Shown: piece by piece, positions 10,117 to 33,530 of the stretch
Layout: each line of letters opens with the position of its first letter
Position numbering within the stretch: the first letter of the stretch is position 1
Assembly (NCBI GenBank): GCA_964600315.1
Contig: CAZRKS010000001.1
Span: 7,078-71,077, forward strand
DNA length: 64,000 bases
Origin: an uncultured Steroidobacteraceae bacterium
GTDB taxonomy: Bacteria > Pseudomonadota > Gammaproteobacteria > Steroidobacterales > Steroidobacteraceae
Direction: 5' to 3'
Made by a program: the position numbers and the translations under genes
The notes under the pieces: model-generated
The model's database searches: none
Seen by the model: only the letters and a program-made list of their open reading frames with translations
What the model was told of the DNA's origin: nothing

Positions 10117-10136
10117 CTACGTCCTAAAGGACTAGG
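10117..10136. promoter_or_regulatory. operator-like palindrome CTACGTCC-TAAA-GGACTAGG
   Basis: 12/16 arm positions match CATCGTCC-N4-GGACGATG. Lies in the 285-nt divergent region between the ipdA-like gene (start 10040) and the SDR (start 10326). Confidence 0.4.
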
Positions 10137-13499: not shown

Positions 13500-13533
13500 T
13501 GCAAGCCGTGTCCTCTGTCGCCCTGCCGGGCCG

Positions 13534-14505
13534 TCAGTCGAACATCGCGCGACGCAGCGCCTCGCGACTGTCGCGCAGCGCTGCCAGTGACGTGCGCGCC
13601 TCTGCCGCGATGTTGAATCCGTGGTACGCGCCCGGATAAACGTGCAGTTCGACCGCGACCCCTGCGCGAGTCAGGCGACGCGCGAACTCCAGGTTTTCCT
13701 CCAGGAACAGGTCGAGCGCACCGACCGAGATGAAGGCCGGAGGGAGCCCGGAGAGATCCGTCGCTCGCGCCGCGGCGGCGCAGGCCGGGACGCCCTCGCC
13801 TCCGGCGGGCCGCCCCAGGTACGCCTCCCAGCCAATCCGGTTGTCCTCCGGCGTCCATACGAATTCGCCGGTGTACGGATGCGGATCTGGATCGACGCAG
13901 GTCCGGTCGTCGATCATGGGGTAGATCAGGTGCTGGAAGGCGATGGCCGCCAGACCCCGATCACGTGCCAGCAGGGCGAGGGCGGCCGCGAGCCCGCCGC
14001 CTGCGCTCTCGCCCATGACGCCGATTCGCGCCGGATCGACCCCGAGCGACGATGCCTCGCGGGTGAGCCAGTGCAGGACCGTGAAGCAGTCCTCCAGAGC
14101 CGCCGGGTACGGATGCTCGGGCGCCAGGCGGTAGTCCACCGAGCAGACGACGCAACCGAGTTCCGCGACCAGCAACCGGTTCGACAGGTCGTTGACCTCG
14201 GGCGCGCCGACCACGTAGCCGCCACCGTGGATCTGCAGCACAGCCGGACGCAGCCCCGCGGCACCCACCGGCCTGTACAGCAGCACGCGCACGTCCGTTG
14301 CATGGCCCGGCGCGCCCGCCCGAAGCTCATCGCGGCGGACCGGAAGATCGTCGCGCGGTGGAACTTCCGCGTACAACGTCGCGAAGCGCGCGCGCGTTTC
14401 CGCAATGGTCTCGGGGGTGAGTCGAATCGCCGGGAGCAGTTCGAGCCCGGGCTTCAACTGCGGATCGACGAGGTGAGCGGTCGCTCGCACGACGCGGGAG
14501 TTCAA
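13534..14505 (-). CDS. alpha/beta hydrolase, hormone-sensitive-lipase-family esterase
   Basis: HGGGYVVG oxyanion motif and GESAGG nucleophile elbow. The track start at 14505 is TTG, overlapping the upstream stop (TTGA). In-frame GTG codons a few residues downstream are alternatives. Confidence 0.8.
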   Translation of the reverse strand: MNSRVVRATAHLVDPQLKPGLELLPAIRLTPETIAETRARFATLYAEVPPRDDLPVRRDELRAGAPGHATDVRVLLYRPVGAAGLRPAVLQIHGGGYVVGAPEVNDLSNRLLVAELGCVVCSVDYRLAPEHPYPAALEDCFTVLHWLTREASSLGVDPARIGVMGESAGGGLAAALALLARDRGLAAIAFQHLIYPMIDDRTCVDPDPHPYTGEFVWTPEDNRIGWEAYLGRPAGGEGVPACAAAARATDLSGLPPAFISVGALDLFLEENLEFARRLTRAGVAVELHVYPGAYHGFNIAAEARTSLAALRDSREALRRAMFD

Positions 14506-16199
14506 GGCTGCTCACTGAAGAGGCGCTGGAGATCGGCCTTGAGCAGCTTGCCCGTCGGATTCTTCGGCAGCGGTTCCCGGCGCACGAGGATGCGGGACGG
14601 CACTTTGTAGGCGGCGAGGCGCTCGGCGACGAAGGCCCGGAGCTGCGCCTCGGTCGGGGACGCGCCTGCCACCGGAACGACGACGGCCGCCACCGCCTCG
14701 CCGTGTGCCGGGTCGGGGATCGGTATCACGCCGGCCTCGGCGAGTCCCGGGTGCTGCAGCAGGCAGGATTCGACCTCGGCTGCCGCGATCTTCTCGCCGG
14801 CCCGGTTGATGACGTTCTTGATCCGGTCGACGACGAACAGGGAGCCGTCCTTCAGGTAGCCGACATCGCCGGTGCGCAGCCAGCCATCGTGCAGCGCCGC
14901 GGCCGTCGCCTCAGGCATGCCCCAGTACTCGCGCATCACGGCGACGCCGCGCACCTGGATTTCGCCCGCCTCACCCTCCGGCTGGATCCGGCCCTCGGGG
15001 CTCACGATGCGCAGCTCCGCGATCGGTGAGATCTTGCCCGAGCTCGTGGGCGCCGCGCGGAAGCCGTCGCCCGAGATCGCGGTCACCGCGCCGCCGGTCT
15101 CGGTCATGCCGAAGCCGACGCCCGACATCGACGGCCCGAGGCCTTCGAGGACCTCGTCGATCACGCGCTGTGGCAGCCCGGCGCCGCCGAAGCCGATGCC
15201 GGCGAGCAGGCTGCGCACCGCCTTGTAGTCGAACGTCGGGTGCTCCAGCATCCGCATCACCATCGCCGGCGCGGCGTTGAACTGCGTCACCCGGTGCTCG
15301 AGGATCAGTTCGATCGCTTCGGCCGGGTCCCAGCGGTGCATGAAGACGAGCTTGCGGCCGTGGACCAGATTGGTCAGGAGCTGCGCGTGCAGCCCGCTCA
15401 CGTGGAAGAGCGGCACGACCGTGAGCGTGGTCGGCGCCAGCGCGCGGCGCATGAGGTTCTCGACGACGCCCGGGGAGGACATCGCCGACAGGGCGGCGAT
15501 GTAGTCGATGTTCATGATCGACTGGCAGACCGCGAGATGGGTCGTGAGCACGGCCTTCGGCCGCGTCGTGGCTCCCGAAGTGAACAGCAGCAGCGCCGGG
15601 TCCTGCGGACCGAGCTGCACCGGCGGCGGCGCCGGGCGCGCGGGCCGCGTGACGTCGTGCCACGCGTGCACGCCACTGCCGGGCTTGGGCTCGCCATCGC
15701 AGAGCACGACCTCGGCGCCGAGCGACCGCCAGTCCTCGCCCAGCCGCTCGAGCCGGTCGGCATCCATGATCAAGGCCCGAGGCTTGACCGTGGCGCACGC
15801 CCCCAGCAGCTCGTCATGCAGGCCGAAGCTGTTCACCGGCGCGGGCACCGCACCCGCGAGTGCGGCGCCCAGGAACGCGACCGCCCATTCCGGCCGGTTG
15901 CGCATCGCAATCACGACGCGGTCGCCCGGCTGGACACCCAGCTTTTCCCTCAGTGCCCAGGCCAGGGCATCGGCCTCGGCGAACACGCGCGCGTACGTCC
16001 AGGTCTCGTCCCGGTAGACGATGAACGGCTTCTCGCCGTGCGCCCGCGCGGTGTTGATGAGATCGGGCAGCGTCGCCTTTGCGTGGCGGTAGGCCCGGAG
16101 CTTCTGTCCGCCGACTTCGACTTCGGTCAGCTCGAACGGCGCGCCGGGCCCCGTCAGCTTCTCACGCAGGCCCGTCAGCAGGCTGGTAATGGCGTCCAT
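14502..16199 (-). CDS. acyl-CoA synthetase (AMP-forming, ANL superfamily)
   Basis: Track ORF trimmed to ATG 16199 (MDAITSLLTGLREKL...), 565 aa. AMP-binding motif LLFTSGATTRPKAV, plus GFGMTETGG and TGDVGYLKDG. Confidence 0.85.
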   Translation of the reverse strand: MDAITSLLTGLREKLTGPGAPFELTEVEVGGQKLRAYRHAKATLPDLINTARAHGEKPFIVYRDETWTYARVFAEADALAWALREKLGVQPGDRVVIAMRNRPEWAVAFLGAALAGAVPAPVNSFGLHDELLGACATVKPRALIMDADRLERLGEDWRSLGAEVVLCDGEPKPGSGVHAWHDVTRPARPAPPPVQLGPQDPALLLFTSGATTRPKAVLTTHLAVCQSIMNIDYIAALSAMSSPGVVENLMRRALAPTTLTVVPLFHVSGLHAQLLTNLVHGRKLVFMHRWDPAEAIELILEHRVTQFNAAPAMVMRMLEHPTFDYKAVRSLLAGIGFGGAGLPQRVIDEVLEGLGPSMSGVGFGMTETGGAVTAISGDGFRAAPTSSGKISPIAELRIVSPEGRIQPEGEAGEIQVRGVAVMREYWGMPEATAAALHDGWLRTGDVGYLKDGSLFVVDRIKNVINRAGEKIAAAEVESCLLQHPGLAEAGVIPIPDPAHGEAVAAVVVPVAGASPTEAQLRAFVAERLAAYKVPSRILVRREPLPKNPTGKLLKADLQRLFSEQP

Positions 16200-16227
16200 T
16201 CGATCTTCCCCCTGGTCTCGCCGGCCG

Positions 16228-17376
16228 TCAGAACGCCCGCAGGCGCGCGTAGCGATCGCGATGAAACGAGCCGTCGCCGAAAGTCTGTTGTAGCACGCGT
16301 GCCCGCTTGAGAAACAGCCCGATGTCGAGGTCGTCGGTGACGCCGACGCCGCCGTGCATCTGCACCGCCTCGTTGAGCGCCTTCTCGCTAAGGTCGGAGG
16401 CGCGCGCCTTGGCGAGGCTCGCGAGCTCCGCCGCCCCGCCCTCGCCACGGTCGTCGGCATCCGCGGCCTCGAGCGCCGCGGCGAGGCTGCTGCGCAGCAG
16501 TTCGATCTCGACGTACAGCCGCGCAGCGCGGTGCTGCAGCGCCTGGAACGATCCAATGGGCACGTCGAACTGCACCCGCTGCTTGAGATAGGCGACCGTA
16601 CGCTCGAACGCCTCGCTGATCACGCCCAGCAGTTCCGCGGCGACGCAGACGCGCGCACGATCGAGCACGCGGTCGAGCACGCCGAACGCCACGTCCGGCG
16701 CGCCGATGACAGCCTCGTCACCGAGCTGAACGCCCTCGAGGCGGACGCGCGCCGCGTTGCGGCTGTCCACCATCCAGCGGCGCTCGACCTGCACGCCGGG
16801 CGCCGCCGGGTCCACGAGGAAGAGGCTGAGCCCGGCAGACTGACCCGCCGCGCCCGAACTGCGCGCCACCACGATGAGCCGGTCGGCGACGTGGCCGTCG
16901 AGCACGAACTCCTTGTCCCCGTCGAGCCGCCAGAGACCCGCCTCGCGCGAGGCACGCAGCGTCACCCGCGTCGGGTCGTGGCGCGGCGTCTCTTCGAGCG
17001 CAACGGCGAGCAGCGCCTCGCCCGCGGCGATCCTCGGCAGCCAGATCTCGCGCTGCGCCTCGCTGCCGGCCTCCGTGAGCAGGCCCCCGCCCAGCACGAC
17101 GGTGGACAGGAGTGGCGTGGCGGCGAGGTTGCGGCCGATCTGCTCGAAGACGGCGCCCAGGCCCTGGTAGCCGACTCCCAGTCCGCCGTAGGCCTCGGGC
17201 AGCACGGCGGCCGGCCAGCCGAGCCCGGCCATCTCGTGCCAGATTGCCGGGTCGTAGCCGCGCTCGTCGCGTCGATCCCGCAGCGCCCGCAGCGCCGAGA
17301 CCGGCGAACGGGTGGCTAGGAACTCTGCCGCGCTGTCGCGCAGCATGCGCTGCTCGTCGTTCAAGAGGAGCGTCAC
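16228..17376 (-). CDS. acyl-CoA dehydrogenase family protein, beta-type subunit
   Basis: Trimmed to GTG 17376 (VTLLLNDEQRMLRDSAAEFL), with GAGG 5 nt upstream and 8 nt after the partner's stop. The C-terminus HGGVGVTDDLDIGLFLKRARVL lacks the catalytic Glu motif. Confidence 0.8.
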   Translation of the reverse strand: MTLLLNDEQRMLRDSAAEFLATRSPVSALRALRDRRDERGYDPAIWHEMAGLGWPAAVLPEAYGGLGVGYQGLGAVFEQIGRNLAATPLLSTVVLGGGLLTEAGSEAQREIWLPRIAAGEALLAVALEETPRHDPTRVTLRASREAGLWRLDGDKEFVLDGHVADRLIVVARSSGAAGQSAGLSLFLVDPAAPGVQVERRWMVDSRNAARVRLEGVQLGDEAVIGAPDVAFGVLDRVLDRARVCVAAELLGVISEAFERTVAYLKQRVQFDVPIGSFQALQHRAARLYVEIELLRSSLAAALEAADADDRGEGGAAELASLAKARASDLSEKALNEAVQMHGGVGVTDDLDIGLFLKRARVLQQTFGDGSFHRDRYARLRAF

Positions 17377-17383
17377 GGCGACC

Positions 17384-18556
17384 TCAGGTCGGTAGCCCGA
17401 GCACGCGCCGGGCGATGATGTTGAGCTGGATTTCCGAGGCGCCGCCCGCAATCGTGTACGACTTGGCATAGAGCCAGAGCCGGCACACCGCGCGCTCATC
17501 CGTGGTGAAGCCCTCGCCTTCCATGCCGAGACCGCGCTGCCCCATGATCTGCTGCAGCAGTTCGTACTTGGCGGATTCCTGTTCCGTCTGCACGAGCTTC
17601 ATGATCGAAGCGAGCCCGTGGACGTCCTCGCGCGCCAGGGCCATCTCGCGCAGGCGGCGCACCGTCAGCGAGAACGCGTGCTGGTCCATCAGCGCGGCGG
17701 CCATGCGGTCGCGCCACACCGGACCGGCCTCGGCCAGGTAGGGCACGGCAATGGCCAGCGCGTCGAGCGACGGGGCGCCGCCCTCGGACAACTTCGACAT
17801 CGCGGCCCGCTCGTGTTCGAGCAGCTTCTTCGCCACGCCCCAGCCCTGGTTGATGCCGCCGACGACATTCCGCGCCGGCACGCGCACGCCATCGAAAAAC
17901 ACTTCGCAGAACCCGGACTTGCCGCTGATCAGCTCGATCGGGCGCACCGTGACCCCGGGCGACTTCATGTCGAGCAGGATGAAGCTGATGCCCTGCTGCT
18001 TCTTCGCCTGCGGATCGGTGCGCACCAGGGCATACATCCAGTCGGCCAGGTCGCCGTCGCTGGTCCAGATCTTCTGTCCGGTGACGATGAAGTCGTCGCC
18101 GTCGCGCACCGCGGCGGTCTTCAGGCTCGCAAGGTCCGAGCCGGCGTTCGGCTCCGAGAAGCCCTGGCACCAGCGCACCTCTCCACGAGCCATCGGGACC
18201 AGGTGTTCCCGCTTCTGCTCCTCGGTGCCGAACTCGAGCAGCACCGGTCCGAGCATCCAGATGCCCAGGTTGTACTGCGGCTCGCGGCAGCCGAGCGCGC
18301 GCGTCTCCTGCTCCAGGATCCGCTGCTCGCGCGGACCGAGGCCGCCGCCACCAAGCGCCTTGGGCCAGCCGGGGACGAACCAGCCGCGGTCACGCATTCG
18401 CTCGAACCAGACACGCTGGTCCTCCGCGCGGAAGCTGACGCGGGAACCACTCCACACCATCTCGTCCGGGCTCGTGATCGGAGAGCGCATCGAGTGCGGG
18501 CAATTGGCTTCCAGCCATTGCCGCGTCTCGGCCCGAAACGTGTCGCTCTCGCTCAC
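17384..18556 (-). CDS. acyl-CoA dehydrogenase, alpha-type (catalytic) subunit
   Basis: Trimmed to GTG 18556 (VSESDTFRAETRQWLEANCP), preceded by GGGAGA. C-terminal YTIAGGASEIQLNIIARRVLGLP. The exact start is uncertain. Confidence 0.8.
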   Translation of the reverse strand: MSESDTFRAETRQWLEANCPHSMRSPITSPDEMVWSGSRVSFRAEDQRVWFERMRDRGWFVPGWPKALGGGGLGPREQRILEQETRALGCREPQYNLGIWMLGPVLLEFGTEEQKREHLVPMARGEVRWCQGFSEPNAGSDLASLKTAAVRDGDDFIVTGQKIWTSDGDLADWMYALVRTDPQAKKQQGISFILLDMKSPGVTVRPIELISGKSGFCEVFFDGVRVPARNVVGGINQGWGVAKKLLEHERAAMSKLSEGGAPSLDALAIAVPYLAEAGPVWRDRMAAALMDQHAFSLTVRRLREMALAREDVHGLASIMKLVQTEQESAKYELLQQIMGQRGLGMEGEGFTTDERAVCRLWLYAKSYTIAGGASEIQLNIIARRVLGLPT

Positions 18557-18636
18557 CAGTGCGTCTCCCTGTGGTCGGCCCTCTGCGCGACGCTGCGGCG
18601 GAAGGCGTCGTTCGCCTCGATGGGGCGCGCGGCCGC

Positions 18637-19410
18637 CTAGAACAGGGTCGGACGGCTCATCCCGTCGACGCCGCCGTCGACGAAGACCTGGGTGCCATGG
18701 ACATAGCTGGCGCCCGGTCCCATCAGGAACTCGATCACCGACGCCAGTTCCGCGGGCCGCGCTCGCCGCCCGATGGGTGCGACGAATTCGCTGATGGCCT
18801 TGCCATAGAGGGGGTCTGCCAGCCCGGCCTGCAGGAGCGGCGTCTCGACCGCACCGGGCGCCACGGTGTTCAGGCGAATCCCGAGCCGGCCCCACTCGAC
18901 CGTGCGCCGCCGCACCGCCACCGTCAATGCGTTCTTGGAGCCCGCATACGCCAGTTGCCCGGCGTGCTCGCCCGCCTTGCCCAGCACCGCGGCCACCTGC
19001 GCTTCATCCCCGGCCTCGAGTGCCGGTCCGATCGGGTTCTTCTCCCACGCCACGTGCACCGATGCCACCGAGGAGACGACGACTGCAGCGGGCGAGGAGC
19101 CGCGTGCCAGCGCATCGCGGAGTCCGTCGAGCAGCGCCACCGCCCCGAAGTAGTTCACCGCGGCAATCTTCGCGTGGGGCTTCACGACCGGGCCGAGGCC
19201 TGCGCACAGCACGAGGCCGTCCAGCGTCCCGTTGCAGCGCTCCAGCACCGCCGAGACCGCGCCGGCACGCCCTTCCGCCGACGACAGGTCGGCAGTGACG
19301 TCCGCTCCCTCGATGTCGATGCCGAGGGTTCGGTGCCCGCGCTCGCGCAACAGCGCGACCGTCGCTGCCCCGATCCCGGACCTGGAACCCGTGATGGCGA
19401 TGAGTGACAT
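18637..19410 (-). CDS. hsdA: 3alpha-hydroxysteroid dehydrogenase/carbonyl reductase-like SDR
   Basis: Trimmed to ATG 19410, 257 aa. MSLIAITGSRSGIGAAT...GLVLCAGLGP...LAYAGSKNALTVAVR...PLLQAGL...YVHG aligns along its full length with my recollection of Comamonas testosteroni 3alpha-HSD/CR, which is also 257 aa. Confidence 0.8.
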   Translation of the reverse strand: MSLIAITGSRSGIGAATVALLRERGHRTLGIDIEGADVTADLSSAEGRAGAVSAVLERCNGTLDGLVLCAGLGPVVKPHAKIAAVNYFGAVALLDGLRDALARGSSPAAVVVSSVASVHVAWEKNPIGPALEAGDEAQVAAVLGKAGEHAGQLAYAGSKNALTVAVRRRTVEWGRLGIRLNTVAPGAVETPLLQAGLADPLYGKAISEFVAPIGRRARPAELASVIEFLMGPGASYVHGTQVFVDGGVDGMSRPTLF

Positions 19411-19456
19411 GGCGTTTTCCCTCTCCGGGAAACATGTCACAGCTCCCCGGCGGCCG

Positions 19457-19476
19457 CACCCGCCAAACGGACGATG
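19457..19476. promoter_or_regulatory. operator-like site CACCCGCC-AAAC-GGACGATG
   Basis: Contains the exact 13-mer CAAACGGACGATG (19464-19476), 53 nt upstream of the hsdA-like start. 13/16 to the palindrome consensus. Confidence 0.55.
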
Positions 19477-19533
19477 CCGGCCCCGCATGCCCGGCGCCCG
19501 CAGATGCGCCCGGGTCGGTCCGCTGCGCCGTGT

Positions 19534-20904
19534 TCAGGCCGGCTGCAGGCGCAGCGGGACTCCGTCGGCCGGCTTCGGCAGTGGGACCCACTCCAGGCGC
19601 GGCGCGTAGCCCTCCGGCACCGTGAACTCGTAACGCCGGACGAATTTCCAGAGGAAGGCCTTCACCATCAGTTCGGCGAAGAACATGCCGATGCACTTGT
19701 GCGCGCCGCTGCCGAACGGGTGGAAGCACATCGGGTGGCGCTTCTGCTCCTGGCGCGGCGCCGCGAATCGAGCCGGATCGAAGGTGTCAGCGTCGGTCCA
19801 CCAGCGCGGGTCACGCTGGTTCATCATCATCGGCAGGTGGAGGACCGTGTGCGCCGGGACCCTGAACCCGCCGAGCTCGGTGTCGCGGATCGTGCGCCGC
19901 ATGGCCATCGGCACCGGCGGGTGCAGGCGCATGGCCTCGTACAGGCAGTGCTGGGCGAAGTCCATGCGGGCGAGGTCGGCATGGGCGAGCGGACCGGGCC
20001 CGAACTGCGCCAGGTGCTCGCGCAGGCGCGTCTGCAGCGCAGCATCCCGGCCGAGGTACATCGCGAGGTGCGAGAGCGCGCTGGTGCTGGTGTCGTGCGC
20101 GGCGAACAGCAGGAAGATGGTGTGATCGACGATCGCCCCCACGTCGTACGGCCGGCCCTGTTCATCCGTCGCGCGGCACAACTGGCTCAGCACGTCGTCG
20201 CCGGCGGCCCCGCGCTGGCGGCGTTCGGCGATCATCGCCCTGCACCAGCGCTCGAGTTCGCGTCGCGCGCGCATTGCACGACCAAAAGTCCCGAACGGCA
20301 GTTCGACCCGCAACACGGAAGTCAGGCCCGCATTGAGGTCGAGGAACAGGTCGTTGATGGTGACGGCCTCGCGCTCGAAGTCCTCGATGCCGAGGAAGCA
20401 CAGGGCGCCGATCTCGAGCAGCAGCTGCTTGATGCGCGGATAGAAGACGACGCCCTCCTCGCGGCCCCAGACCTGCAGGTGGCGGTCCATCACCGGTTGC
20501 ATCATCTCGACGTAGCGATGCAGCGCCGCCGCCTTGAAGGCGCCCTGCATCATCCGCCGGTTGGCACGGTGCTCGTCGAAGTCCATCAGCAGCAGGCCGC
20601 GCGGATAGAACGTGCCGAGCTGCCTGTTGTAACCCTTCTCCGCGGAGAAGCACTCCTCGGGGTCGTGGAAGATGCGCTCGTACAGATCGACGCCCGTCAC
20701 GAGCAGCCCGCCCTGCCACGCCAGCCGGATACGCGACACTGGCCCGAACTCGCGCACGTGGCGGGTCGCCACCGCGTGCAGGTCGTGCAGCACCGCAAAC
20801 GTCTGGCCGATCACCGGCCAGCCCTCGTCTCCCGGGATGTGCGCCAGGTCGGTCGCGTCGGACGCCTGCCGGTAAGACCGGTCGACCGCGGACTGCGCCG
20901 TCAT
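19534..20904 (-). CDS. cytochrome P450 monooxygenase
   Basis: Heme-thiolate loop FHPFGSGAHKCIGMFFA and EXXR (YEAMRLHPP). Trimmed to the ATG at 20904, because the track start at 20973 is TTG. 456 aa. Confidence 0.85.
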   Translation of the reverse strand: MTAQSAVDRSYRQASDATDLAHIPGDEGWPVIGQTFAVLHDLHAVATRHVREFGPVSRIRLAWQGGLLVTGVDLYERIFHDPEECFSAEKGYNRQLGTFYPRGLLLMDFDEHRANRRMMQGAFKAAALHRYVEMMQPVMDRHLQVWGREEGVVFYPRIKQLLLEIGALCFLGIEDFEREAVTINDLFLDLNAGLTSVLRVELPFGTFGRAMRARRELERWCRAMIAERRQRGAAGDDVLSQLCRATDEQGRPYDVGAIVDHTIFLLFAAHDTSTSALSHLAMYLGRDAALQTRLREHLAQFGPGPLAHADLARMDFAQHCLYEAMRLHPPVPMAMRRTIRDTELGGFRVPAHTVLHLPMMMNQRDPRWWTDADTFDPARFAAPRQEQKRHPMCFHPFGSGAHKCIGMFFAELMVKAFLWKFVRRYEFTVPEGYAPRLEWVPLPKPADGVPLRLQPA

Positions 20905-20963
20905 CGACGCAACCCGGAACCGCCGGCGGGCGGGCGAGCCCGCCTGCGCACGCAACGCGCTGT

Positions 20964-20983
20964 TCGCGTCCAAACGGACGATG
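20964..20983. promoter_or_regulatory. operator-like site TCGCGTCC-AAAC-GGACGATG
   Basis: Exact 13-mer at 20971-20983, in the 143-nt divergent region between the P450 (start 20904) and the OYE-type reductase (start 21048). 13/16. Confidence 0.55.
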
Positions 20984-21047
20984 ACCGGAACGTTTCCAAC
21001 ATCAGAATGCCTCCGACAACTTCGCCGCCCGCACGAGTGGAGTCTAT

Positions 21048-23171
21048 ATGACCGCCGCCCTCACGCACCTCCTCGAGCCGGGTCGCATCGGCGGGCTCGA
21101 ACTGCGCAACCGCATCGGCATGGCGCCGATGGGCTCCAATTTCGCCGAGGCCGACGGACACTGCGGCGAGCGCATCCAAGCTTATTATGAAGCGCGTGCA
21201 AAGGGCGGCGCCGGACTGCTGATCATGGGCGTGGGCTCCATCGCCTACCCCGCGGGCGCGGCCGAGCCTTACCAGGTCGGCATCTCCCGCGATGATTTCA
21301 TCCCGGGCCTGGCCGGCGTGGCTGAACGCGCGCACCGGCACGGCGCCAAGATCGCGATTCAGCTGCAGCACGCCGGCAAGACCGCCATGCGCGACCTCGC
21401 CGAGGGGCGCCCCCTCTGGGCGCCGTCGCCGCCGCCCCCTGCGTCGAACGCGATGCTGAGCGCCCTCACTCGCGAAGAGATGGCGGCCTTCGTCGGCGGC
21501 ATGGGCAGCCACAAGCCGCAATTGCGCGTGATGGACCAGGGCGACATCGAGCAGCTGATCGAGTGGTTCGCCGCCGCGGCCGCACGCGCGCAGGCCGCCG
21601 GATTCGATGGCGTCGAGTTGCACGGCGCGCACGGCTACGTCGTCGCGAGCTTCCTCTCGCCCTACTACAACAAGCGCGAGGACGAATACGGCGGCCCGCT
21701 CGAGAACCGTGCCCGGCTGCTCCTCGAGATCATCCGGGCCGTGAAGAGCCGCGTCGGCGCCGATTTTCCGGTCTGGGTGCGGCTGGACGGCGAAGAACTG
21801 CGCACCACAGGCGGCATCACCATCGACGACACCGTGGCCACGGCCCGCATGGCCGAGCAGGAAGGTGCGGACGCCTTCAGCATTTCGGCGTACTCACGGC
21901 TCACCGACGGCGTCGCGTTCACCGAGGCCCCGCTCGTTCACCAGCCGGGCGCGCTCGTGGGCTACGCCGCAGCGGTCAAGAAGGCCGTCGGCGTTCCCGT
22001 CCTGGCTGCGGGGCGCATCGCCCCGGAGGTGGCGGACGAAGGCATCGCGCAGGGCAATTACGACTTCCTGCTCGTCGGCCGCGGGCTGCTGGCCGACCCG
22101 GAGCTGCCCCACAAGCTCGCGCAGGGAAGCACCGAACTGATTCGGCCGTGCATCTACTGCTACTCGTGCGTCAGCCAGATCTTCATCAACCGGCGCGTCA
22201 AGTGCGCCGTCAACGCGCAGTGCGGCCACGAGTATGAATGGCCGCTCGAGGCGGCCCCGGCACGGCGCCACGTGCTGGTGGTCGGCGGCGGGCCGGCGGG
22301 CCTCGAGGCAGCGCGCGTGGCGGCCGAGCGCGGCCACCGCGTGACGCTCGTCGAGCGCAGTGACCGCCTCGGCGGCGTGCTGTTCTTTGCCGCGCTCGCC
22401 TATGAATCGAACGGCCCGTTGCTCGACAACCTGCTGGCGCAGGTGCGCGCGCTGCCGATCGAGGTGCGACTGTCCACCGAGGCCACTCCGGCGCTGGTCG
22501 CCGAGATCGAGCCGGACGCCATCATCGTCGCGACCGGGCTGCGCCGCACGGCCCCGCCCATTCCGGGCGCGGACCTGCCGCACGTCTGGAGCGGCGACGA
22601 GCTCAAGCGCCTGATGACGGACGACCGCGCCGAGGAGATCGCCGCCCGCAAACTCACGCTCGCCCAGCGCGCGCTGCTGAAGGCAGGCGGCATCCTGAAG
22701 GTCACGGACAGCACGCGCGCGCTGCAGGGTCTGTCGAAGCTGTGGATGCCGCTCGGCCGGCGCGTGGTCATCGTCGGCGGGGGCCTGGTCGGGCTCGAAC
22801 TGGCGGAGTTTCTGCTGGCGCGCGACCGGGAAGTCACCGTCCTCGAGGGCTCGGACAAGGCGGGGCGCGAGCTGCCGATCGTGCTGCGCTGGCGCGTCGT
22901 GGATGCGGTCGAGAAGCGTGCCCAGCTGCACCGCAAGGCGCGCGTGACGTCCATCACGGAGGATGCCGTGCTGTGGACCGACGCGCTGGGCGCCGAGCAG
23001 CGCACCGAGGCGGATTCGGTCATCATGGCTCTCGGCGCCGAGCCGGACGACAGCGTCGCGCAGGCCCTGGCCGCGAGTGGCGTGCCGTTGCACCGCGCCG
23101 GCGACTGTCGCACGGTCGGCTGCATCGAAGGCGCGATCGAGGACGGCTACAACGCCGGGCGCCTCGTCTGA
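21048..23171 (+). CDS. OYE-family FMN / FAD-NAD(P)H / [4Fe-4S] oxidoreductase (2,4-dienoyl-CoA reductase FadH / BaiH-type enoate reductase)
   Basis: 707 aa. N-terminal OYE TIM-barrel motifs (RIGMAPMG, IQLQHAGK, VELHGAHGY). Cys cluster CIYCYSCVSQ...C. C-terminal GGGPAGLEAA and GGGLVGLELA Rossmann motifs. Confidence 0.9.
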   Translation: MTAALTHLLEPGRIGGLELRNRIGMAPMGSNFAEADGHCGERIQAYYEARAKGGAGLLIMGVGSIAYPAGAAEPYQVGISRDDFIPGLAGVAERAHRHGAKIAIQLQHAGKTAMRDLAEGRPLWAPSPPPPASNAMLSALTREEMAAFVGGMGSHKPQLRVMDQGDIEQLIEWFAAAAARAQAAGFDGVELHGAHGYVVASFLSPYYNKREDEYGGPLENRARLLLEIIRAVKSRVGADFPVWVRLDGEELRTTGGITIDDTVATARMAEQEGADAFSISAYSRLTDGVAFTEAPLVHQPGALVGYAAAVKKAVGVPVLAAGRIAPEVADEGIAQGNYDFLLVGRGLLADPELPHKLAQGSTELIRPCIYCYSCVSQIFINRRVKCAVNAQCGHEYEWPLEAAPARRHVLVVGGGPAGLEAARVAAERGHRVTLVERSDRLGGVLFFAALAYESNGPLLDNLLAQVRALPIEVRLSTEATPALVAEIEPDAIIVATGLRRTAPPIPGADLPHVWSGDELKRLMTDDRAEEIAARKLTLAQRALLKAGGILKVTDSTRALQGLSKLWMPLGRRVVIVGGGLVGLELAEFLLARDREVTVLEGSDKAGRELPIVLRWRVVDAVEKRAQLHRKARVTSITEDAVLWTDALGAEQRTEADSVIMALGAEPDDSVAQALAASGVPLHRAGDCRTVGCIEGAIEDGYNAGRLV

Positions 23172-23192
23172 GCCCCCGTCAGGCCCGCGGAG

Positions 23193-23966
23193 TCAGACCC
23201 AGATCGGGGCCTCTGCGCCGCCGTCGACGCCGAGCACCTTGCCTGTGATCCAGCCCGACGCCGGGGACGCGAGGAACAGCGCGGCCGCGGCGATGTCCTC
23301 AATCTCGCCCAGCCGTGCGAGCGGAGTGCGTTCGAGCATCGCCGCGTTGCGCTCGGGCGTGAGGTACGGCCGCAGCGCATCGGTCAGGATGCTGCCGGGC
23401 TCGATGGCATTGATGCGGACGTGCGGCGCGAAGTCCTGCGCCAGGTTGCGCGTCATCTGGTTGAGAGCCGCCTTGGCCGCACCATAGGCGCTGAAATGCT
23501 TCTGCGCATAGCGCGCGGCGCTCGACGAGATGTTCACCACCGCGCCGCCACCGGCCTCGCGCATCCGGGGGACGCACTTCTGGATCAGCGCATAAGCCGG
23601 CACCACGTTCCAGGCCAGCACCTTGGCGAAATCCGCGCCCGGCATCCGCCGCGGATCGTTCGGCCCGGCGCCGCCCGCGTTGTTGACCAGGATCGTGACC
23701 TTGCCGAGTTCCGCCACCGTGGACTGGACCAGTCGGTCGAGCGCCGCGTCGTCGTTGACGTCGCAGGTCACTGCGATGGCGCGCCGGCCTGCGGCGCGGA
23801 TTTCGTCGGCGACTGCATCGATGTCGGGACGCGTGCGCGCCGCGACGGCGACGTCGGCACCCGCCTGCGCGAGGGCGAGCGCGCAGGCACGGCCGATGCC
23901 CTTGCCGGCACCGGTGACGATGGCCACCTGGCCTTCGACGGAAAACAGGGCGGGGATATTCCGCAT
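23193..23966 (-). CDS. short-chain dehydrogenase/reductase
   Basis: Trimmed to ATG 23966 (MRNIPALFSVEGQVAIVTGAGKGIG), with GGAG upstream. NNAG and YGAAK motifs. 257 aa. Confidence 0.85.
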   Translation of the reverse strand: MRNIPALFSVEGQVAIVTGAGKGIGRACALALAQAGADVAVAARTRPDIDAVADEIRAAGRRAIAVTCDVNDDAALDRLVQSTVAELGKVTILVNNAGGAGPNDPRRMPGADFAKVLAWNVVPAYALIQKCVPRMREAGGGAVVNISSSAARYAQKHFSAYGAAKAALNQMTRNLAQDFAPHVRINAIEPGSILTDALRPYLTPERNAAMLERTPLARLGEIEDIAAAALFLASPASGWITGKVLGVDGGAEAPIWV

Positions 23967-24028
23967 CGAGACGACTCCGTTCGCGGACTGGCGAGCGCCA
24001 TGATCCTCGGGCTCCGCCGGGCGGGAAG

Positions 24029-24048
24029 CATCGCACAAACGGACGATG
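24029..24048. promoter_or_regulatory. operator-like site CATCGCAC-AAAC-GGACGATG
   Basis: Exact 13-mer at 24036-24048, in the divergent region between the SDR (start 23966) and the membrane protein (start 24145). 14/16. Confidence 0.55.
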
Positions 24049-24144
24049 GCCCTCGAGCGCGGCACGCCCTAGTCTGGCGGACCATCGGGGGCGAGGCGTG
24101 CGCCGTGGCGCGTGCCACATGTGGCGTGATGTCAGACAAGAGGC

Positions 24145-24648
24145 ATGACCATGTCCAATCGAAGACACTTCATCATCTCGCAGCAGCTGACTCCGTTCGT
24201 CATCAACGGAGTCCTGAACGGCTGGATCGCCTGGGCCACGCACAAGAACCATCCCCCGGCGTCGCTCTGGGGGGCTCATGGCTACTGGTCCGATCTCGTG
24301 CTCACCGGCGTGCTGCTGCCCGGCATCACCTGGCTGATCCTCTGGCCGCTGATCCGCAAGCAGGCGGCCGCCGGCAAGGCCCCGGCAACGGACGGCGTTC
24401 CCGAGCCCTGGGCCCTGCGCTTCTTGCCGAGCACGCTGTGGGGCGGTTCCGCCGTGATCGGCATCCTCGGCGGATTGATCGGTCTCGTCGTCGCGGGAAT
24501 CATGCACGCCCTCGGAGCTCCCAGCCTGCCGGCGGCGAGCTACATGGTCTTCAAGGGCGTCTACGGCGGCATGCTCTCCGTGCTGCTGCAGCCGTCGATG
24601 GTCTTCGCCATTCTGCGATCCGTCCGAGCGGTTCCCGCGCGAGCCTGA
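24145..24648 (+). CDS. hypothetical integral membrane protein
   Basis: 167 aa with several hydrophobic spans (LVLTGVLLPGITWLILWPLI, AVIGILGGLIGLVVAGIMHAL, GGMLSVLLQPSMVFAIL). No family recognised. Confidence 0.5.
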   Translation: MTMSNRRHFIISQQLTPFVINGVLNGWIAWATHKNHPPASLWGAHGYWSDLVLTGVLLPGITWLILWPLIRKQAAAGKAPATDGVPEPWALRFLPSTLWGGSAVIGILGGLIGLVVAGIMHALGAPSLPAASYMVFKGVYGGMLSVLLQPSMVFAILRSVRAVPARA

Positions 24649-24671
24649 GCGACGGGCGGGAGACCGTCTCC

Positions 24672-25697
24672 ATGCGGGTGATGGTCACCGGATCGACCGG
24701 CTACGTCGGCGCCTTCAGCGTCAAGGCGCTCATCGACGCCGGCCACCGGGTCCGGTTGCTCGTGCGCGATCCCGCCAAGGCGGGAACCGTGCTTCGTGCC
24801 GTCGGGGTCAGCGGCCGGCTGGACTGCGTGCAGGGTGACATGACCGACGAAGCGTCGGTGCTGGAGGCCCTGAAGGGCTGCGACGCGGCACTGCACTGCG
24901 CGGCCGTGGTCAGCACGCACGCGTCGCGCGAGCAGGAAATGCTGCGCGCCAATCCGCAGGGTGCCGAGTTCGTGATCGGCCACGCCGTGCGCCTGGGGCT
25001 CGATCCGGTCATCCATTGCTCCAGCGTCACCGCCCTGCTGCGGCCGGGCGCCACGGTCCTCACGGCCGACATGCCGCCGGGCACGCTCACGCGCGGCTAC
25101 GCAGGTTCCAAGATCATCTGCGAGCAGTACGTGCGGACGCTGCAGAGCACGGGCGCGCCGGTCGTCATCACCTACCCCGGCAGCGTGACGGGTCCGGCTG
25201 CGTGGAGCATCCTCGGTGAAGCGACGCTGGGCGTGGCGGCGACCGTCCGCGCGGGCTTGCTGCCGACGCGCGAGGCGGCCCTTTCGATCATCGACGCGCG
25301 CGACCTCGGGGCCATACACGCCGCACTGATGACCCGCGGACGCGGCCCACGACGGATCCTGTGCGGCGGCCACTACCTGACTCCGGTGGACATCGCGCAG
25401 CGACTGCAGAATCTCACGGGGCGAAAGTTCCGCGTGCTGCCCGTGTCCGCCGCGCTGCTGCGCGGCGCTGGCCTGCTGTCCGACGCCGTTTCGCGCGCGC
25501 TGCCGCGGCTCGCCAACCCGTTCACGCACGAGGCCATGGTCTATTTCACGCAGTTACCGCCGACCGACGACTCCGCGGTGTGGCGTGAACTCGGCCTGCG
25601 TTACCGCGATGTCGAGGACACGCTGCGCGCGTCCATCCTCGCGGCGCGGGCCGCCGGTCTGCTGAGCGACGCTCAGATCGGCAAGCTGGCGTCTTGA
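24672..25697 (+). CDS. NAD-dependent epimerase/dehydratase-family (extended SDR, 3beta-HSD-like) protein
   Basis: Trimmed to ATG 24672, with GGGAGA upstream. MRVMVTGSTGYVGAF Rossmann motif and YAGSK catalytic motif. 341 aa. Confidence 0.8.
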   Translation: MRVMVTGSTGYVGAFSVKALIDAGHRVRLLVRDPAKAGTVLRAVGVSGRLDCVQGDMTDEASVLEALKGCDAALHCAAVVSTHASREQEMLRANPQGAEFVIGHAVRLGLDPVIHCSSVTALLRPGATVLTADMPPGTLTRGYAGSKIICEQYVRTLQSTGAPVVITYPGSVTGPAAWSILGEATLGVAATVRAGLLPTREAALSIIDARDLGAIHAALMTRGRGPRRILCGGHYLTPVDIAQRLQNLTGRKFRVLPVSAALLRGAGLLSDAVSRALPRLANPFTHEAMVYFTQLPPTDDSAVWRELGLRYRDVEDTLRASILAARAAGLLSDAQIGKLAS

Positions 25698-26692
25698 CGA
25701 TCCCGCCGCGGCCGTGCCGCGGCGCGCGGTTTCTGCCGGGACCGTCCCCGGGTCCGACCGGACCCTGTCGCACGCACCTTGCGCTTCCCCCCGGCCGTCG
25801 CCGCCTGCGTGGTTTCCCGCATGAATTCGCCCATCCGGGCGATTGCCGCCTTGGTCTCGGGCAGGAACGGCACCATGTGCCACACGTGCGGCACCTGGTC
25901 CCAGACCTCGACCCTGAAGTCCACGCCCTGCGCGACGGCGCGCTTCGCGACGCGACGCGTGTCGTCGAGCAGCACCTCGGTGCTGCCCACTTGCGCGAGG
26001 ACCGGCGGCAGCCCGTGAAAGTCGCCGAACACCGGCGAGACCAGCGGGTTGTCGTGCAGCGCGTCGTCGAGATAGAGCGCGTTCATCATCTTCATGCTCT
26101 TCGGCGACAGCATCGGGTCGCGACGCGCATTCGAGAACCGCGACTCGCCGCCGAAACTGAAGTCGGTGAACGGCGAGATCACGACCGCGCCGGCCGGCAT
26201 CGGGTCGCCGTCGTCCCGCAGCGCCAGCAGGGTCGACAGCGTCAGCCCGCCTCCGGCGGAGTCGCCGGCAATCACGATGCTCGCGGGGTCGGTCCCGAGG
26301 TCCAGCAGGTGGCGATAGGCCGCCAGGCAGTCCTCGAGCCCGGCCGGAAACGGGTGTTCGGGCGCCAGCCGGTAATGCACCAGCAGCGCCCGCGATCCTG
26401 CCGCCCGGCACACCCGTGCCACCATCAGCGGCACCTGCCCCGACGCCGGCAACATGAAGCCGCCGCCCGGCAGGTAGAGCAGGGTCATCGCATCGCTCGA
26501 CTCCCGCGTCCGTATCCATTCGCCGCGGAAGGCGTGAGCCGCCACCGGGGACATCTTCACTCCGGCCGGCAACCTCGGCCTGCCCCGCCCTTCGACGAAG
26601 CGCCGCGTCTCCTCGAGCGTGCTGTTGGTCATCATCCGCTTGACCGTGAAGTGCAGCACCAGGTTCAGGACCTTTGCCTGCCAGCTCGCCAT
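25673..26692 (-). CDS. alpha/beta hydrolase, HSL-family lipase/esterase with basic C-terminal tail
   Basis: 339 aa. LPGGGFM oxyanion region and GDSAGG nucleophile elbow. The last ~40 aa are Arg/Lys-rich (GGKRKVRATGSGRTRGRSRQKPRAAARPRRDR). The 3' end overlaps the convergent gene by 25 nt. Confidence 0.8.
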   Translation of the reverse strand: MASWQAKVLNLVLHFTVKRMMTNSTLEETRRFVEGRGRPRLPAGVKMSPVAAHAFRGEWIRTRESSDAMTLLYLPGGGFMLPASGQVPLMVARVCRAAGSRALLVHYRLAPEHPFPAGLEDCLAAYRHLLDLGTDPASIVIAGDSAGGGLTLSTLLALRDDGDPMPAGAVVISPFTDFSFGGESRFSNARRDPMLSPKSMKMMNALYLDDALHDNPLVSPVFGDFHGLPPVLAQVGSTEVLLDDTRRVAKRAVAQGVDFRVEVWDQVPHVWHMVPFLPETKAAIARMGEFMRETTQAATAGGKRKVRATGSGRTRGRSRQKPRAAARPRRDRQDASLPI

Positions 26693-26699
26693 CGTAACC

Positions 26700-27689
26700 T
26701 CACTTCGCCGGCGCCGTGCGCGCGGCTGACGGTCGCCGGGCCGGTCGCCTCAGCTTGCGGAAAGTCTCAAGCAGCTTCGCCGTGCGCGTCCCTGCCTGCC
26801 GGTAAGGCCGGCCCGCCGCCTTGAACGCCTCGGACCAGATATGCGCCAACTGCCGCGTGATGTCGCCTGACATCCTGGAATTGCGCGTGCAAGCCTCGCG
26901 GACCACCACGACGCGTCGGCGAAACGACTCGGCCCGACGCAGGTCGCGCATGAATTCCAGCTTGGCGCCGAGCGACTCGCGCTGGTGCCGCGACAAGCTC
27001 GCACTCGCCTTCGTCGCTCCGGCGAGCAACGCGCTGACGGCCTCGATCGCCGCGGCCGCCTCGACCCAGTTGGAGCGCGCGGCCTGCCGGCGACCGGCAT
27101 GGGGCGCAATGTCCTCGTGCCCGCGGAGCACCTCGAATTCGGCCGTGGCTTCCTCCCCGAACACCGGGTCCAGGATCGGCTTCATGTTCGCATCGATCTC
27201 GGCCCAGTCCGCGGACCTGAGCACCTGCCGGGCACGCGGGAAGGCCCGGAGTTCCTCGACGTCCATGTGCCGCCGCAGATGGCCGATATAGCGGTGTGCG
27301 CTCTTGCGCAGCGCGAAGGTGTCGGCGGTCCTGGGATCGGCACGGCAGCGGTCGATCAGCGCGAGCAGCTCGGCGCCCCGCGCCAGGATCTGCACGTGGT
27401 CCGCGAGCAAGTGCTCCACCTGCGGCGCGGAGGGCGGATCGCGCTCCACGAGCTTGCGGAAGACGAGGTCCTCCTTGGGGTGGTGGAAGCGGTCCGGGTA
27501 GTTGGTCATGTAGCGCATGACGCCGTGCATGACCTCGTAGTCGGGCTGCTTGCGCTGGTTGAGCAGGGCCACCTGCTTCTCCAGCAGCCTGAACACCCGC
27601 AGCTGGTAATGGTGCTCTTCGACCAGGGCCCGCAGGATGTCGGGCACCTCCAGAGCCTGTTTGCCACGTCCTCGTGCTGGGGTCGCCAT
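26700..27689 (-). CDS. hemerythrin-like domain protein with helical, basic C-terminal extension
   Basis: 329 aa, GAGGGAGA SD. The N-terminal ~190 aa carry His/Glu motifs typical of hemerythrin/HHE domains (EEHH, FHHPKED, LLADH, HLRRHMDVEE). The C-terminal ~140 aa match no family I recognise and end in KLRRPARRPSAARTAPAK. Confidence 0.75.
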   Translation of the reverse strand: MATPARGRGKQALEVPDILRALVEEHHYQLRVFRLLEKQVALLNQRKQPDYEVMHGVMRYMTNYPDRFHHPKEDLVFRKLVERDPPSAPQVEHLLADHVQILARGAELLALIDRCRADPRTADTFALRKSAHRYIGHLRRHMDVEELRAFPRARQVLRSADWAEIDANMKPILDPVFGEEATAEFEVLRGHEDIAPHAGRRQAARSNWVEAAAAIEAVSALLAGATKASASLSRHQRESLGAKLEFMRDLRRAESFRRRVVVVREACTRNSRMSGDITRQLAHIWSEAFKAAGRPYRQAGTRTAKLLETFRKLRRPARRPSAARTAPAK

Positions 27690-27716
27690 GGGGTCTCCCT
27701 CGTTCAGCCTCTGCCG

Positions 27717-28175
27717 TCAGCCGCGGGTGCTCCGGCGCCTGCCCGCTGGCTTCCTGTTGACCGGGCGCGTCCCCGCGGCCCGCCGTTGCGGTTCGGCGCG
27801 CGCGAGCAGGCGATCGACCTTGTCGCGCAGCTCGGCCATGTCCTCGCCGGTCGGCACGCCCAGGCGCATCAAGACCGCCATGACCCGCTCGTCGAACACG
27901 CCCTGCAATCGCCCTTGGGACGGCAAGCCCATCATTCTGCTCGGCGACCCGGTCCAGTCACTCCAGACCTTGCGGGCCACCTCGTGCAGTTCCGGCTCCA
28001 GCCTGCGGCCTTCTGCGACGAGGGTCCTGAAGTCCGCCCGGGCCCGGTTCCTGTCGGCCCCGTTGGCACGGTTCAGGGACGCCAGCCCGGCGAGGACGAC
28101 GTCGTGGGACGACTCCCGGACGCGCGAAAGCCAGGCGTCGGATTCGGCCTTCGTGCGGATCTTTCGGCTCGGCAT
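27717..28175 (-). CDS. phasin-like granule-associated protein (PhaI/PhaF N-domain type)
   Basis: 152 aa, GGAGAAATC SD. VVLAGLASLNRA...FRTLVAEGRRLE...VFDERVMAVLMRLGVPTGEDMAELRDKVDRL matches the pattern I recall for Pseudomonas PhaI/PhaF (WLAGLGAY...FDxRVxxxLxRLGxPSxxDxxxL). Basic tail. Confidence 0.7.
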   Translation of the reverse strand: MPSRKIRTKAESDAWLSRVRESSHDVVLAGLASLNRANGADRNRARADFRTLVAEGRRLEPELHEVARKVWSDWTGSPSRMMGLPSQGRLQGVFDERVMAVLMRLGVPTGEDMAELRDKVDRLLARAEPQRRAAGTRPVNRKPAGRRRSTRG

Positions 28176-28244
28176 GATTTCTCCGGTGCTCGCAGATGGG
28201 AATGCCCGATTCAGACCCTAGGCCCCGGGATTAGAGCAATCAAC

Positions 28245-28937
28245 TCAGGTACTTCCCGCAAGCTGCGGCAGGTAGCGGCGCGCCACGCGCCGGAACTCCT
28301 CCTGCTTCGGGCCTCGAAGGTAAGGGGTGACCAGCGACATCACCTGGAAGACTCCTTGCGAGAGCGCGTCGTCGTCGACCAGGGCCGGTCCGGCACCCAC
28401 CGGGCGCTGCAGGGCTCGAAAGTTCAGCCAGTAGGTCGTCAAGAGCGAGATGTTGGTCGCCAGCGCGCGCGCCTCGTCCGGCGTCGCATCGAGCGAGCCG
28501 GAGGTGACGAGCGCCCGGCAGTAGGCGCTCAGGCGGGAAACGCCGGACTCGAGACCGCGCAGGAAGCGCCGGCGCAGCACTGGATACGCCGAGCACAGTT
28601 CGCTCAGGTCGCGGTGAATGAACTGGTAGTCCTGGATCACCTCGAACGACAGGTGCAACAGCAGCCACAGGTCGTCGACAGCCTGCCGGTAGCCGGCGTC
28701 GTCGCCGGTGACCTCCGCGACGGCGCCCTGGTAGCGCTCGAACAGCGCCATGACGATGTCTTCCTTGTGGCGGAAGTGATAGTAGAGGTTGCCCGGGCTG
28801 ATCCCGGCCGCATCGGCGACGTGATTGGTGGTGACGTGCGGCACGCCTCGTTCGTTGAACAGGGCCAGCGCCGCCGCCAGGATGCGCTCGCGGGTCTGGG
28901 TCGCTCCGCGCCTCGCGGCAGGCTCGCGCGGCTTCAC
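28245..28937 (-). CDS. TetR/AcrR-family transcriptional regulator
   Basis: GTG start 28937, overlapping the WS/DGAT stop (GTGA). HTH segment RERILAAALALFNERGVPHVTTNHVADAAGISPGNLYYHF. Confidence 0.85.
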   Translation of the reverse strand: MKPREPAARRGATQTRERILAAALALFNERGVPHVTTNHVADAAGISPGNLYYHFRHKEDIVMALFERYQGAVAEVTGDDAGYRQAVDDLWLLLHLSFEVIQDYQFIHRDLSELCSAYPVLRRRFLRGLESGVSRLSAYCRALVTSGSLDATPDEARALATNISLLTTYWLNFRALQRPVGAGPALVDDDALSQGVFQVMSLVTPYLRGPKQEEFRRVARRYLPQLAGST

Positions 28938-30433: not shown

Positions 30434-30445
30434 GGCCTCGCCCCC

Positions 30446-31846: not shown

Positions 31847-31984
31847 CGGCTCTGATTCTCCTGCAGGGGCCGGTTCTGCCGCCGGCACTCGTGAGCGATG
31901 ACACGGCCGGGCCCGACCGTCGAGTCGGCGTTCCGGCCTCGCCAGCGTCGCAGGCAGGACTGCTGCGCTCATCCCCCGTTCAGA

Positions 31985-33469: not shown

Positions 33470-33530
33470 CGCTGCAAACCTCCCGCTGCCTGACCTCTTC
33501 CCCGGCTCCTCGCAACACCGGCACCCGATC

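Follow-up and report, generated by a model that had tools for sequence, protein, structure and literature searches.

Control of steroid and lipid metabolism by TetR-family proteins is documented in several bacteria, and these systems are the closest described counterparts of the element considered here, a 20-bp imperfect inverted repeat that recurs in promoter regions of a 64,000-nt stretch of DNA (the window) from an uncultured Steroidobacteraceae bacterium (GenBank assembly GCA_964600315.1, contig CAZRKS010000001.1, positions 7,078 to 71,077 of the forward strand). In Caenibius tardaugens, the edc cluster is controlled by the TetR-type protein EdcR, a repressor that depends on estrogen (PMC8700777). 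EdcR resembles the system proposed below in pairing a local TetR protein with one palindromic operator that is repeated in several promoters of a steroid-degradation cluster (Pa, Pb, Pt and Pr), in having a weaker operator copy at its own promoter, and in the conservation of that operator in a related species (PMC8700777). It differs in the operator itself, which reads TnnCnnTACnAnTnGTAnnGnnA and overlaps the -10 element (PMC8700777), whereas the operator of the window lies over the predicted -35. The TetR subfamily is also different, the window protein carrying a predicted PF13972 C-terminal domain.

In actinobacteria, KstR and KstR2 are TetR repressors of cholesterol and lipid catabolism, and they offer a second parallel in the form of a short palindrome found in many lipid or steroid catabolic promoters, often divergent ones; however, the KstR motif TnnAACnnGTTnnA is unmatched by the window site, and the phylum is a different one (PMC1995591). 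The window site is without the AAC-NN-GTT core of that motif, and the TetR proteins of the window score 19 to 29 bits against the KstR model (19 bits for the product of 28245-28937), compared with a cut-off of 280. A third parallel is PhaD of Pseudomonas putida, a TetR-family activator of the pha cluster, whose gene is the last of a storage-polymer synthase operon with phasin genes alongside, whose sites consist of two inverted 6-bp half-sites in two promoters, and whose proposed effector is a CoA intermediate (PMC7590123). In this case the half-sites are spaced 8 bp apart rather than the 4 bp of the window site, and PhaD activates (PMC7590123). Moreover, the PhaD cluster stores polyhydroxyalkanoate whereas that of the window would store wax ester or triacylglycerol, and the likeness is one of gene order and operator layout.

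More general precedents are found in the divergent tetR-tetA promoters, where a TetR dimer on a 15-20 bp palindrome (tetO) controls both directions, and in acyl-CoA-sensing TetR proteins such as FadR (Bacillus, Thermus), FasR and PsrA, the binding of which is released or modulated by lipid-derived ligands. The window site differs from all of these in its unrelated sequence and in a right arm that is much less conserved than the left arm and the asymmetric spacer. Literature searches for the operator sequence, for PF13972 and for clusters combining TetR and phasin genes with those of wax ester synthase/diacylglycerol acyltransferase (WS/DGAT) returned nothing relevant, and a plasmid search returned generic TetR annotations only. 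The operator sequence matches none of those of EdcR, KstR or PhaD, and the window holds an ordinary kind of gene switch in an undescribed version.

A conserved palindromic site in predicted promoter regions

Read toward the minus-strand genes, the repeat has the form 5'-CATCGTCC-nTTn-GGACGATG-3', and it is very probably the operator of a regulator. Four strong copies, all with the T-rich side on the minus strand, lie in the window. The first (19457-19476, upstream of the hsdA-like operon) reads CATCGTCCGTTTGGCGGGTG on that strand; the second (20964-20983), in the divergent region between genes for a cytochrome P450 and an Old Yellow Enzyme (OYE)-type flavoprotein, reads CATCGTCCGTTTGGACGCGA, with the core CGTCC-GTTT-GGACG; and the third (24029-24048), between a short-chain dehydrogenase/reductase (SDR) gene and a divergent membrane-protein and epimerase-like pair, reads CATCGTCCGTTTGTGCGATG. 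The fourth (35058-35077), detected by a weight matrix built from orthologous sites, separates the minus-strand gene WS/DGAT-4 from the plus-strand SDR gene 35130-35966 and is the best palindrome of all (TCGTCC-GAAG-GGACGA on the plus strand; perfect in a 6-4-6 arrangement at 35062-35077). Two weaker copies, missed by the first, 13-mer-based weight matrix, were recovered by a search for the cores GTCC-N4-GGAC and, at up to one mismatch, CGTCC-N4-GGACG. These are a probable weaker site at 10117-10136 (ACGTCC-TAAA-GGACTA on the plus strand), between a CoA-transferase operon and an SDR gene, and a probable related site at 47280-47299 (GGTTGTCC-GTTC-GGACGAGG), upstream of the SDR gene 46415-47176; both are likewise T-rich on the minus strand, as in all six window sites. 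In the four strong sites the arms are self-complementary at 23 of 32 positions (P = 6.5e-7), and the dyad is register-specific, with 5.5 of 8 matches in the correct register as against 0.8-3.2 when the right arm is shifted by 1-3 nt. The right arm is specific to each promoter class. A 24-bp imperfect palindrome, GATGACCGGAACGTTTCCAACATC, which abuts the second operator (20980-21003), was dropped from consideration as it is not conserved in orthologous loci.

The sequence-only reading of the window had singled out a shorter element, an exact 13-mer (CAAACGGACGATG) that comprises the left arm and spacer together with the first base of the right arm. Our search of the window returned the same three copies, all on the plus strand (19464-19476, 20971-20983 and 24036-24048, within the first three operators), with no further match at up to one mismatch; the fourth operator has two differences from it. 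The distances that had been given, 53, 66 and 69 nt upstream of minus-strand start codons, were reproduced by reading the sequence with in-frame translation (starts at 19410, hsdA-like; 20904, P450; and 23966, SDR). The gene map, which is based on in-frame translation together with Pfam and NCBIfam, and in which 6.6% of the window is intergenic, also agrees that all three copies are intergenic, two being in divergent promoter regions (P450/OYE-type flavoprotein and SDR/membrane protein) and the copy at 19464-19476 being flanked by the stop codon of the P450 gene and the start codon of the hsdA-like gene. The notion of three sites stands for the exact 13-mer but not for the palindrome of which it is a part. 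That such a repeat would be very unlikely by chance does not follow from copy number, because 53 distinct 13-mers occur at least three times in this window of 70% GC (order-3 Markov simulations average 25), and three copies are not rare per se; the claim fares better for A/T-rich words, as a 13-mer with at least six A/T and at least three copies was seen in only 7 of 150 simulations, and the sole other real example lies in paralogous WS/DGAT genes. Copy number is therefore weak evidence, and significance rests on intergenic location and on conservation across genomes. More generally, GC-rich 13-mers recur through composition alone, and repeat counts in this window accordingly need composition-aware controls.

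Related loci from about ten lineages were gathered by P450 scans of genome and metagenome collections, supplemented by context look-ups. An exact look-up of the window P450 found no record, and the comparison was built on its homologues, which carry labels of Steroidobacteraceae metagenome-assembled genomes (MAGs). The motif, which reads CATCGTCCGTTTG toward the genes, is present at orthologous promoters wherever the cluster is retained (L001, L003/L161, L004, L084, L085, L165, L167, L172, L174, L175, L176 and L177), amounting to about ten lineages of Steroidobacteraceae- or Burkholderiales-labelled metagenome genomes with the motif at the same promoters. Three exact copies occur in L003/L161, four in L085 and three in L165, while L004 has two, the SDR gene and the third site being jointly absent. 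In anchored alignments of four promoter classes (6-9 lineages each), pairwise identity is 0.88-1.00 for the 13-mer and 0.32-0.41 for its flanks, the latter value being about random for this base composition. For the hsdA-class site it is 0.95 among 8 lineages. The 13-mer of the SDR/membrane-protein class has 100% identity among 9 lineages, even where the TetR of the locus has no more than 52-53%. The fourth operator (35058-35077) is kept in L170, L171, L174, L175 and L177, and the site at 10117 is matched by an identical 16-mer, amid diverged flanks, in the orthologous intergenic region of L172/L173. Within 437 kb of related loci, 40 of 40 matches at up to one mismatch fall in DNA without coding periodicity, and 2.1 Mb of unrelated loci contain 0 matches. 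The motif is also absent from the control L002/L081, which has an 83%-identical P450 in a different gene context. L172/L173, from a JABAQU Steroidobacteraceae MAG, contains further operator-like intergenic palindromes at 633, 8533 and 12476. They lie ahead of a CoA-transferase operon, of an operon with an acyl-CoA ligase gene that faces a DJ-1 gene, and of a TonB-dependent receptor gene that faces an amidase gene, which makes for a larger regulon in that genome.

Conservation extends to the spacing of the site from hexamers of -10 type. The -10 boxes and start sites described here are predictions, derived from conservation at a fixed offset, for which the background rate of nAnnnT is 1.9%. Of 30 sites, 22 have nAnnnT on the T-rich side, at +28 to +33 past the 13-mer and thus 20 nt away from the 20-bp operator. 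The opposite side has a TAnnCT or nAnAAT hexamer in 24 of the 30, separated from the operator edge by 19-21 nt. These 24 are made up of every site in the three divergent promoter classes (22) and the two hsdA-class sites that have a divergent gene (L085 and L172); every hsdA-class site without a divergent gene (6/6) is without this hexamer. The sequence between operator and hexamer varies among lineages, with its length constant. In the window, the predicted -10 boxes are CATGTT for the hsdA-like promoter (19431-19436, minus strand; preceded by TG, 20 nt from the operator edge, with nAnnnT at the same offset in 7/8 lineages), CAGAAT for the OYE-type promoter (21003-21008, plus strand; 19 nt from the edge, with nAnAAT at exactly 19 nt in 7/7 lineages), GAGGAT for the promoter of the SDR gene 23193-23966 (24003-24008, minus strand; nAnnAT at the offset in 8/9 lineages), TAGTCT for the membrane-protein/epimerase promoter (24070-24075, plus strand; 21 nt from the edge, with TAnnCT at 19-21 nt in 9/9 lineages) and CAACCT for the promoter of the SDR gene 35130-35966 (35098-35103, plus strand; 20 nt from the edge). 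A GAGACT hexamer (47254-47259) similarly lies 20 nt after the site at 47280-47299. Apart from a TG contributed by the operator arms, the -35 hexamers show little conservation. The position of -10-like hexamers 19-21 nt outside the operator places it over the predicted -35 region, with its center at about -42 to -43, of one or two back-to-back promoters, and would leave the motif untranscribed. In L085 (14715-14727) and L167 (12349-12361), the start codon follows the motif by about 40 nt, right behind the predicted -10 (TAGACT and GAGGAT, respectively), which suggests leaderless mRNAs or a hexamer that doubles as a ribosome-binding site.

The candidate regulator and competing explanations

The conserved site and its geometry are compatible with more than one regulatory arrangement. 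In the explanation that we favor, the 20-bp repeat would serve as the operator of a dimeric helix-turn-helix regulator, and most transcription units in the stretch from about 5 to 47 kb would have one of the six window operators in their promoter regions. The units under control would be the CoA-transferase/beta-oxidation operon, the hsdA-like operon with its acyl-CoA dehydrogenase, ligase and Baeyer-Villiger-type monooxygenase (BVMO) genes, the P450, OYE-type reductase and SDR genes, the membrane-protein/epimerase pair, the operon encoding WS/DGAT, TetR, phasin, hemerythrin and lipase, and two more SDR units, with one bound dimer acting in both directions at back-to-back promoters. We infer that the most likely binder would be the TetR protein encoded at 28245-28937 (minus strand, 230 aa, with the WS/DGAT genes on one side and the phasin gene on the other), probably a repressor that occludes the -35 region and leaves the DNA in response to a lipid-derived ligand, for instance an acyl-CoA or a steroid/lipid intermediate. 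This full explanation, including both that binder and repression, we regard as reasonably likely.

Several features of the TetR protein are consistent with such a role. It combines a TetR_N domain with the PF13972 C-terminal domain (Pfam), and PF13972-type orthologues with 52-85% identity are syntenic in nine lineages, each locus of which carries the operator. A palindromic site precedes the TetR-containing operon in the window and in L170, L175 and L177, which suggests that the protein probably regulates itself through the site at 35058-35077. An AlphaFold model (predicted local distance difference test score, pLDDT, 88.6) has the TetR fold, and its nearest structures are the uncharacterized 3NNR and 3RH2, followed by EthR, FasR, KstR2 and FadR; the modeled protein thus resembles TetR proteins that sense lipids. 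Conceptually this would be a standard local regulon, of practical value more than a surprise. The operator gives a regulon map for an uncultured steroid- and lipid-degrading group common in wastewater and soil metagenomes, linking through one 20-bp sequence genes that annotation alone would not, namely those for wax-ester/triacylglycerol synthases, phasin, lipase, P450, dehydrogenases and beta-oxidation. It also names a testable candidate regulator-operator pair, which, should the ligand be a steroid or an acyl-CoA, could become a biosensor, as EdcR did.

A number of observations weigh against this explanation. Operators are present in L174, L172/L173 and L167, where no PF13972 TetR was seen within about 20 kb; from the L174 operators it follows that the regulator is encoded elsewhere or that the TetR assignment is wrong. 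Conversely, no operator was found before the TetR-containing operon in L171/L165 and L176, and the motif is absent from L178, a locus whose TetR homologue has 46% identity. The TetR recognition helix is invariant in all homologues, including that of L178, and hence does not discriminate among them. A simple symmetric dimer does not account for a spacer that is conserved without being palindromic or for a left arm stronger than the right, and weak -35 elements with an operator center near -42 suit an activator as well as a repressor. With regard to the promoters, scanning 19380-24200 for canonical sigma-70 promoters gave no hit, no convincing -10 was found at the window's own P450 or WS/DGAT promoters, and all of the -10 boxes and start sites are predicted only. 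Two of these loci have further peculiarities. In L174 (7631-8362), a truncated WS/DGAT fragment runs into the hemerythrin gene, and the TetR and phasin genes are missing, with three operators intact. L178 contains genes for phasin, patatin, TetR, fatty acyl-CoA reductase and WS/DGAT, and two of its intergenic regions (8029-8241 and 19257-19484) share TAGTGTGA, possibly the regulator's own site in that locus.

Binding of the same site by an activator is the main rival, though a doubtful one, whether this be the local TetR protein acting in the manner of PhaD, FasR or DhaS or a CRP/FNR-type class II dimer centered near -41.5 on either or both of the divergent promoters. An operator center at about -42 to -43 from both starts, combined with weak -35 hexamers, is what such a protein would be expected to show, but these starts are predicted ones. 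FNR-type boxes share a 5-4-5 or 6-4-6 half-site layout, which the window site equals, although its sequence is unlike the CRP or FNR consensus (TGTGA-N6-TCACA and TTGAT-N4-ATCAA, respectively) and no gene for a cyclic nucleotide (cNMP)-binding or CRP-type protein appears among the window genes scanned with Pfam. As to a TetR activator, the order of four WS/DGAT genes, TetR and phasin is the same architecture as that of the PhaD locus, whereas most characterized TetR proteins repress (PMC7590123). A more specific version, which we put forward only tentatively, is that the PF13972-type TetR would activate as PhaD does, or have a dual role, by acting on an intrinsically asymmetric operator at about -42, of which the invariant 13 bp, including the non-palindromic TT spacer, would always be oriented toward the main operon. 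It would thereby couple neutral-lipid storage (four WS/DGAT, phasin, lipase and fatty acyl-CoA reductase) with steroid/lipid oxidation (P450, 3-alpha-hydroxysteroid-dehydrogenase-like SDR, BaiCD-like reductase and BVMO) in one regulon common to Steroidobacteraceae- and Burkholderiales-labelled metagenome genomes. Alternatively, the operator may be real and its binder another protein, such as the TetR proteins encoded at 47322-48050 and 55740-56432, the protein encoded at 53584-54276, or a regulator elsewhere in the genome. The loci with operators and no PF13972 TetR in view speak for this, as do the operator-like site directly downstream of the TetR gene 47322-48050 and the fact that the TetR 28245-28937 is linked to the operator by co-localization only. 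We nevertheless consider it unlikely, given that the promoter regions of the TetR genes 47322-48050 and 55740-56432 contain no operator-like sequence and that the PF13972 TetR has its place within the regulated cluster in nine lineages, in a comparison whose related loci do not extend as far as the other window regulators.

The remaining explanations dispense with an operator altogether. The sequence-only reading had proposed either a shared transcription-factor site or a shared element of 5' untranslated regions (5'-UTRs). Support for the former comes from the footprint, the register-specific dyad, the exclusively intergenic location and the fixed spacing to -10-like hexamers. The latter, which might be a target of a small RNA or an RNA-binding protein, draws on the common orientation of three copies 53-69 nt upstream of start codons, yet it now appears very improbable: conserved -10-like hexamers are predicted downstream of the motif, which would put it outside the transcript, the start codon about 40 nt after the motif in L085 (14715) and L167 is too close to allow a leader, the folding of putative leaders does not surpass that of shuffled sequences (z-scores -0.33, -0.07 and +0.60), Rfam gave no match, and both the DNA-level dyad and its use by divergent genes on opposite strands favor recognition of DNA. 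It is scarcely credible that the motif is a chance repeat, a dispersed repeat of the repetitive extragenic palindromic (REP) kind or part of a promoter for an alternative sigma factor, whether of the extracytoplasmic function (ECF) group or sigma-54. Repeated 13-mers are indeed common in this GC-rich window, and the motif contains CGTC/CGTT as do ECF -10 boxes, but chance is at odds with exact conservation amid flanks at random level, and a REP-like origin with copies that, in the window and the related loci, occur only in 5' promoter regions, have unrelated flanks and belong to no longer repeat unit. For an ECF sigma factor the anchored alignments show no conserved AAC-type -35 partner at 16-17 nt, and for sigma-54 (GG-N10-GC) the distance between GG and GC deviates by one from that required, with a GG that lacks conservation. 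A particular ECF arrangement (-35 GGAAC with -10 CGTT) was rejected in that a GGAAAC occurs near the site at 20964-20983 only and is not conserved, and the sites at 19457-19476 and 24029-24048 have no partner. Complementarity of CATCG to CGATG around start codons was also set aside, being confined to P450 genes rather than general.

Gene content around the sites

The transcription units that flank the six sites are as follows. A CoA-transferase/beta-oxidation operon starts at 10040 on the minus strand, opposite a plus-strand SDR gene that ends at 11135 and has an uncertain start (10209 by longest open reading frame, 10326 in the gene map). The hsdA-like operon (11201-19410, minus strand) encodes the hsdA-like SDR, two acyl-CoA dehydrogenases, an acyl-CoA ligase, an esterase, an SDR and the Baeyer-Villiger-type monooxygenase; for the hsdA-like SDR, with its start at 19410, the top NCBIfam match is PRK12428, under its cut-off. 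Next come the P450 gene (19534-20904, minus strand, start codon 20904) and, divergent from it, the gene for a 707-aa flavoprotein of the OYE/2,4-dienoyl-CoA-reductase type (21048-23171, plus strand). The SDR gene at 23193-23966 (minus strand, start codon 23966) is divergent from the plus-strand unit 24145-25697, which consists of the gene for a 167-aa membrane protein (24145-24648) and the epimerase-like gene. The operon of four WS/DGAT genes, TetR, phasin, hemerythrin and lipase occupies 25673-34946 on the minus strand, with WS/DGAT-4 (33531-34946) as its first gene and the SDR gene 35130-35966 (plus strand) opposite. The SDR gene 46415-47176, together with two DUF1254/DUF1214 genes, lies downstream of the site at 47280-47299. 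Between that site and the stop of the TetR gene 47322-48050, one of two further TetR genes in the window (the other being 55740-56432), is a GC-rich hairpin, GGGTGCCCGAATCGGGCACCC (47301-47321, minus strand), without a T-run.

The larger neutral-lipid storage cluster, extending over 25673-39833, contains four tandem WS/DGAT paralogues and genes for TetR, phasin, hemerythrin, a steryl-acetyl-hydrolase-like lipase, an acyl-CoA ligase and a fatty acyl-CoA reductase. Its core (WS/DGAT, TetR, phasin, hemerythrin and lipase) is kept in loci labelled Steroidobacteraceae and in others labelled Ideonella or Betaproteobacteria, a distribution across differently labelled taxa that could reflect horizontal transfer or mis-binning. 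Besides the fatty acyl-CoA reductase, the window encodes a sulfatase, the start of whose gene is uncertain. Two stretches, 39833-40675 (about 0.8 kb) and 48050-48948 (about 0.9 kb), are unusually long for DNA without a confidently called gene. The distal part of the window contains two sets of genes for molybdoenzymes of the DMSO-reductase family (48948-53600 and 56907-61465), each comprising a large molybdenum subunit, a 4Fe-4S subunit and an ethylbenzene-dehydrogenase-like heme subunit. Both sets are similar to steroid C25 dehydrogenases, and each has a TetR gene nearby (47322-48050 and 55740-56432, respectively).

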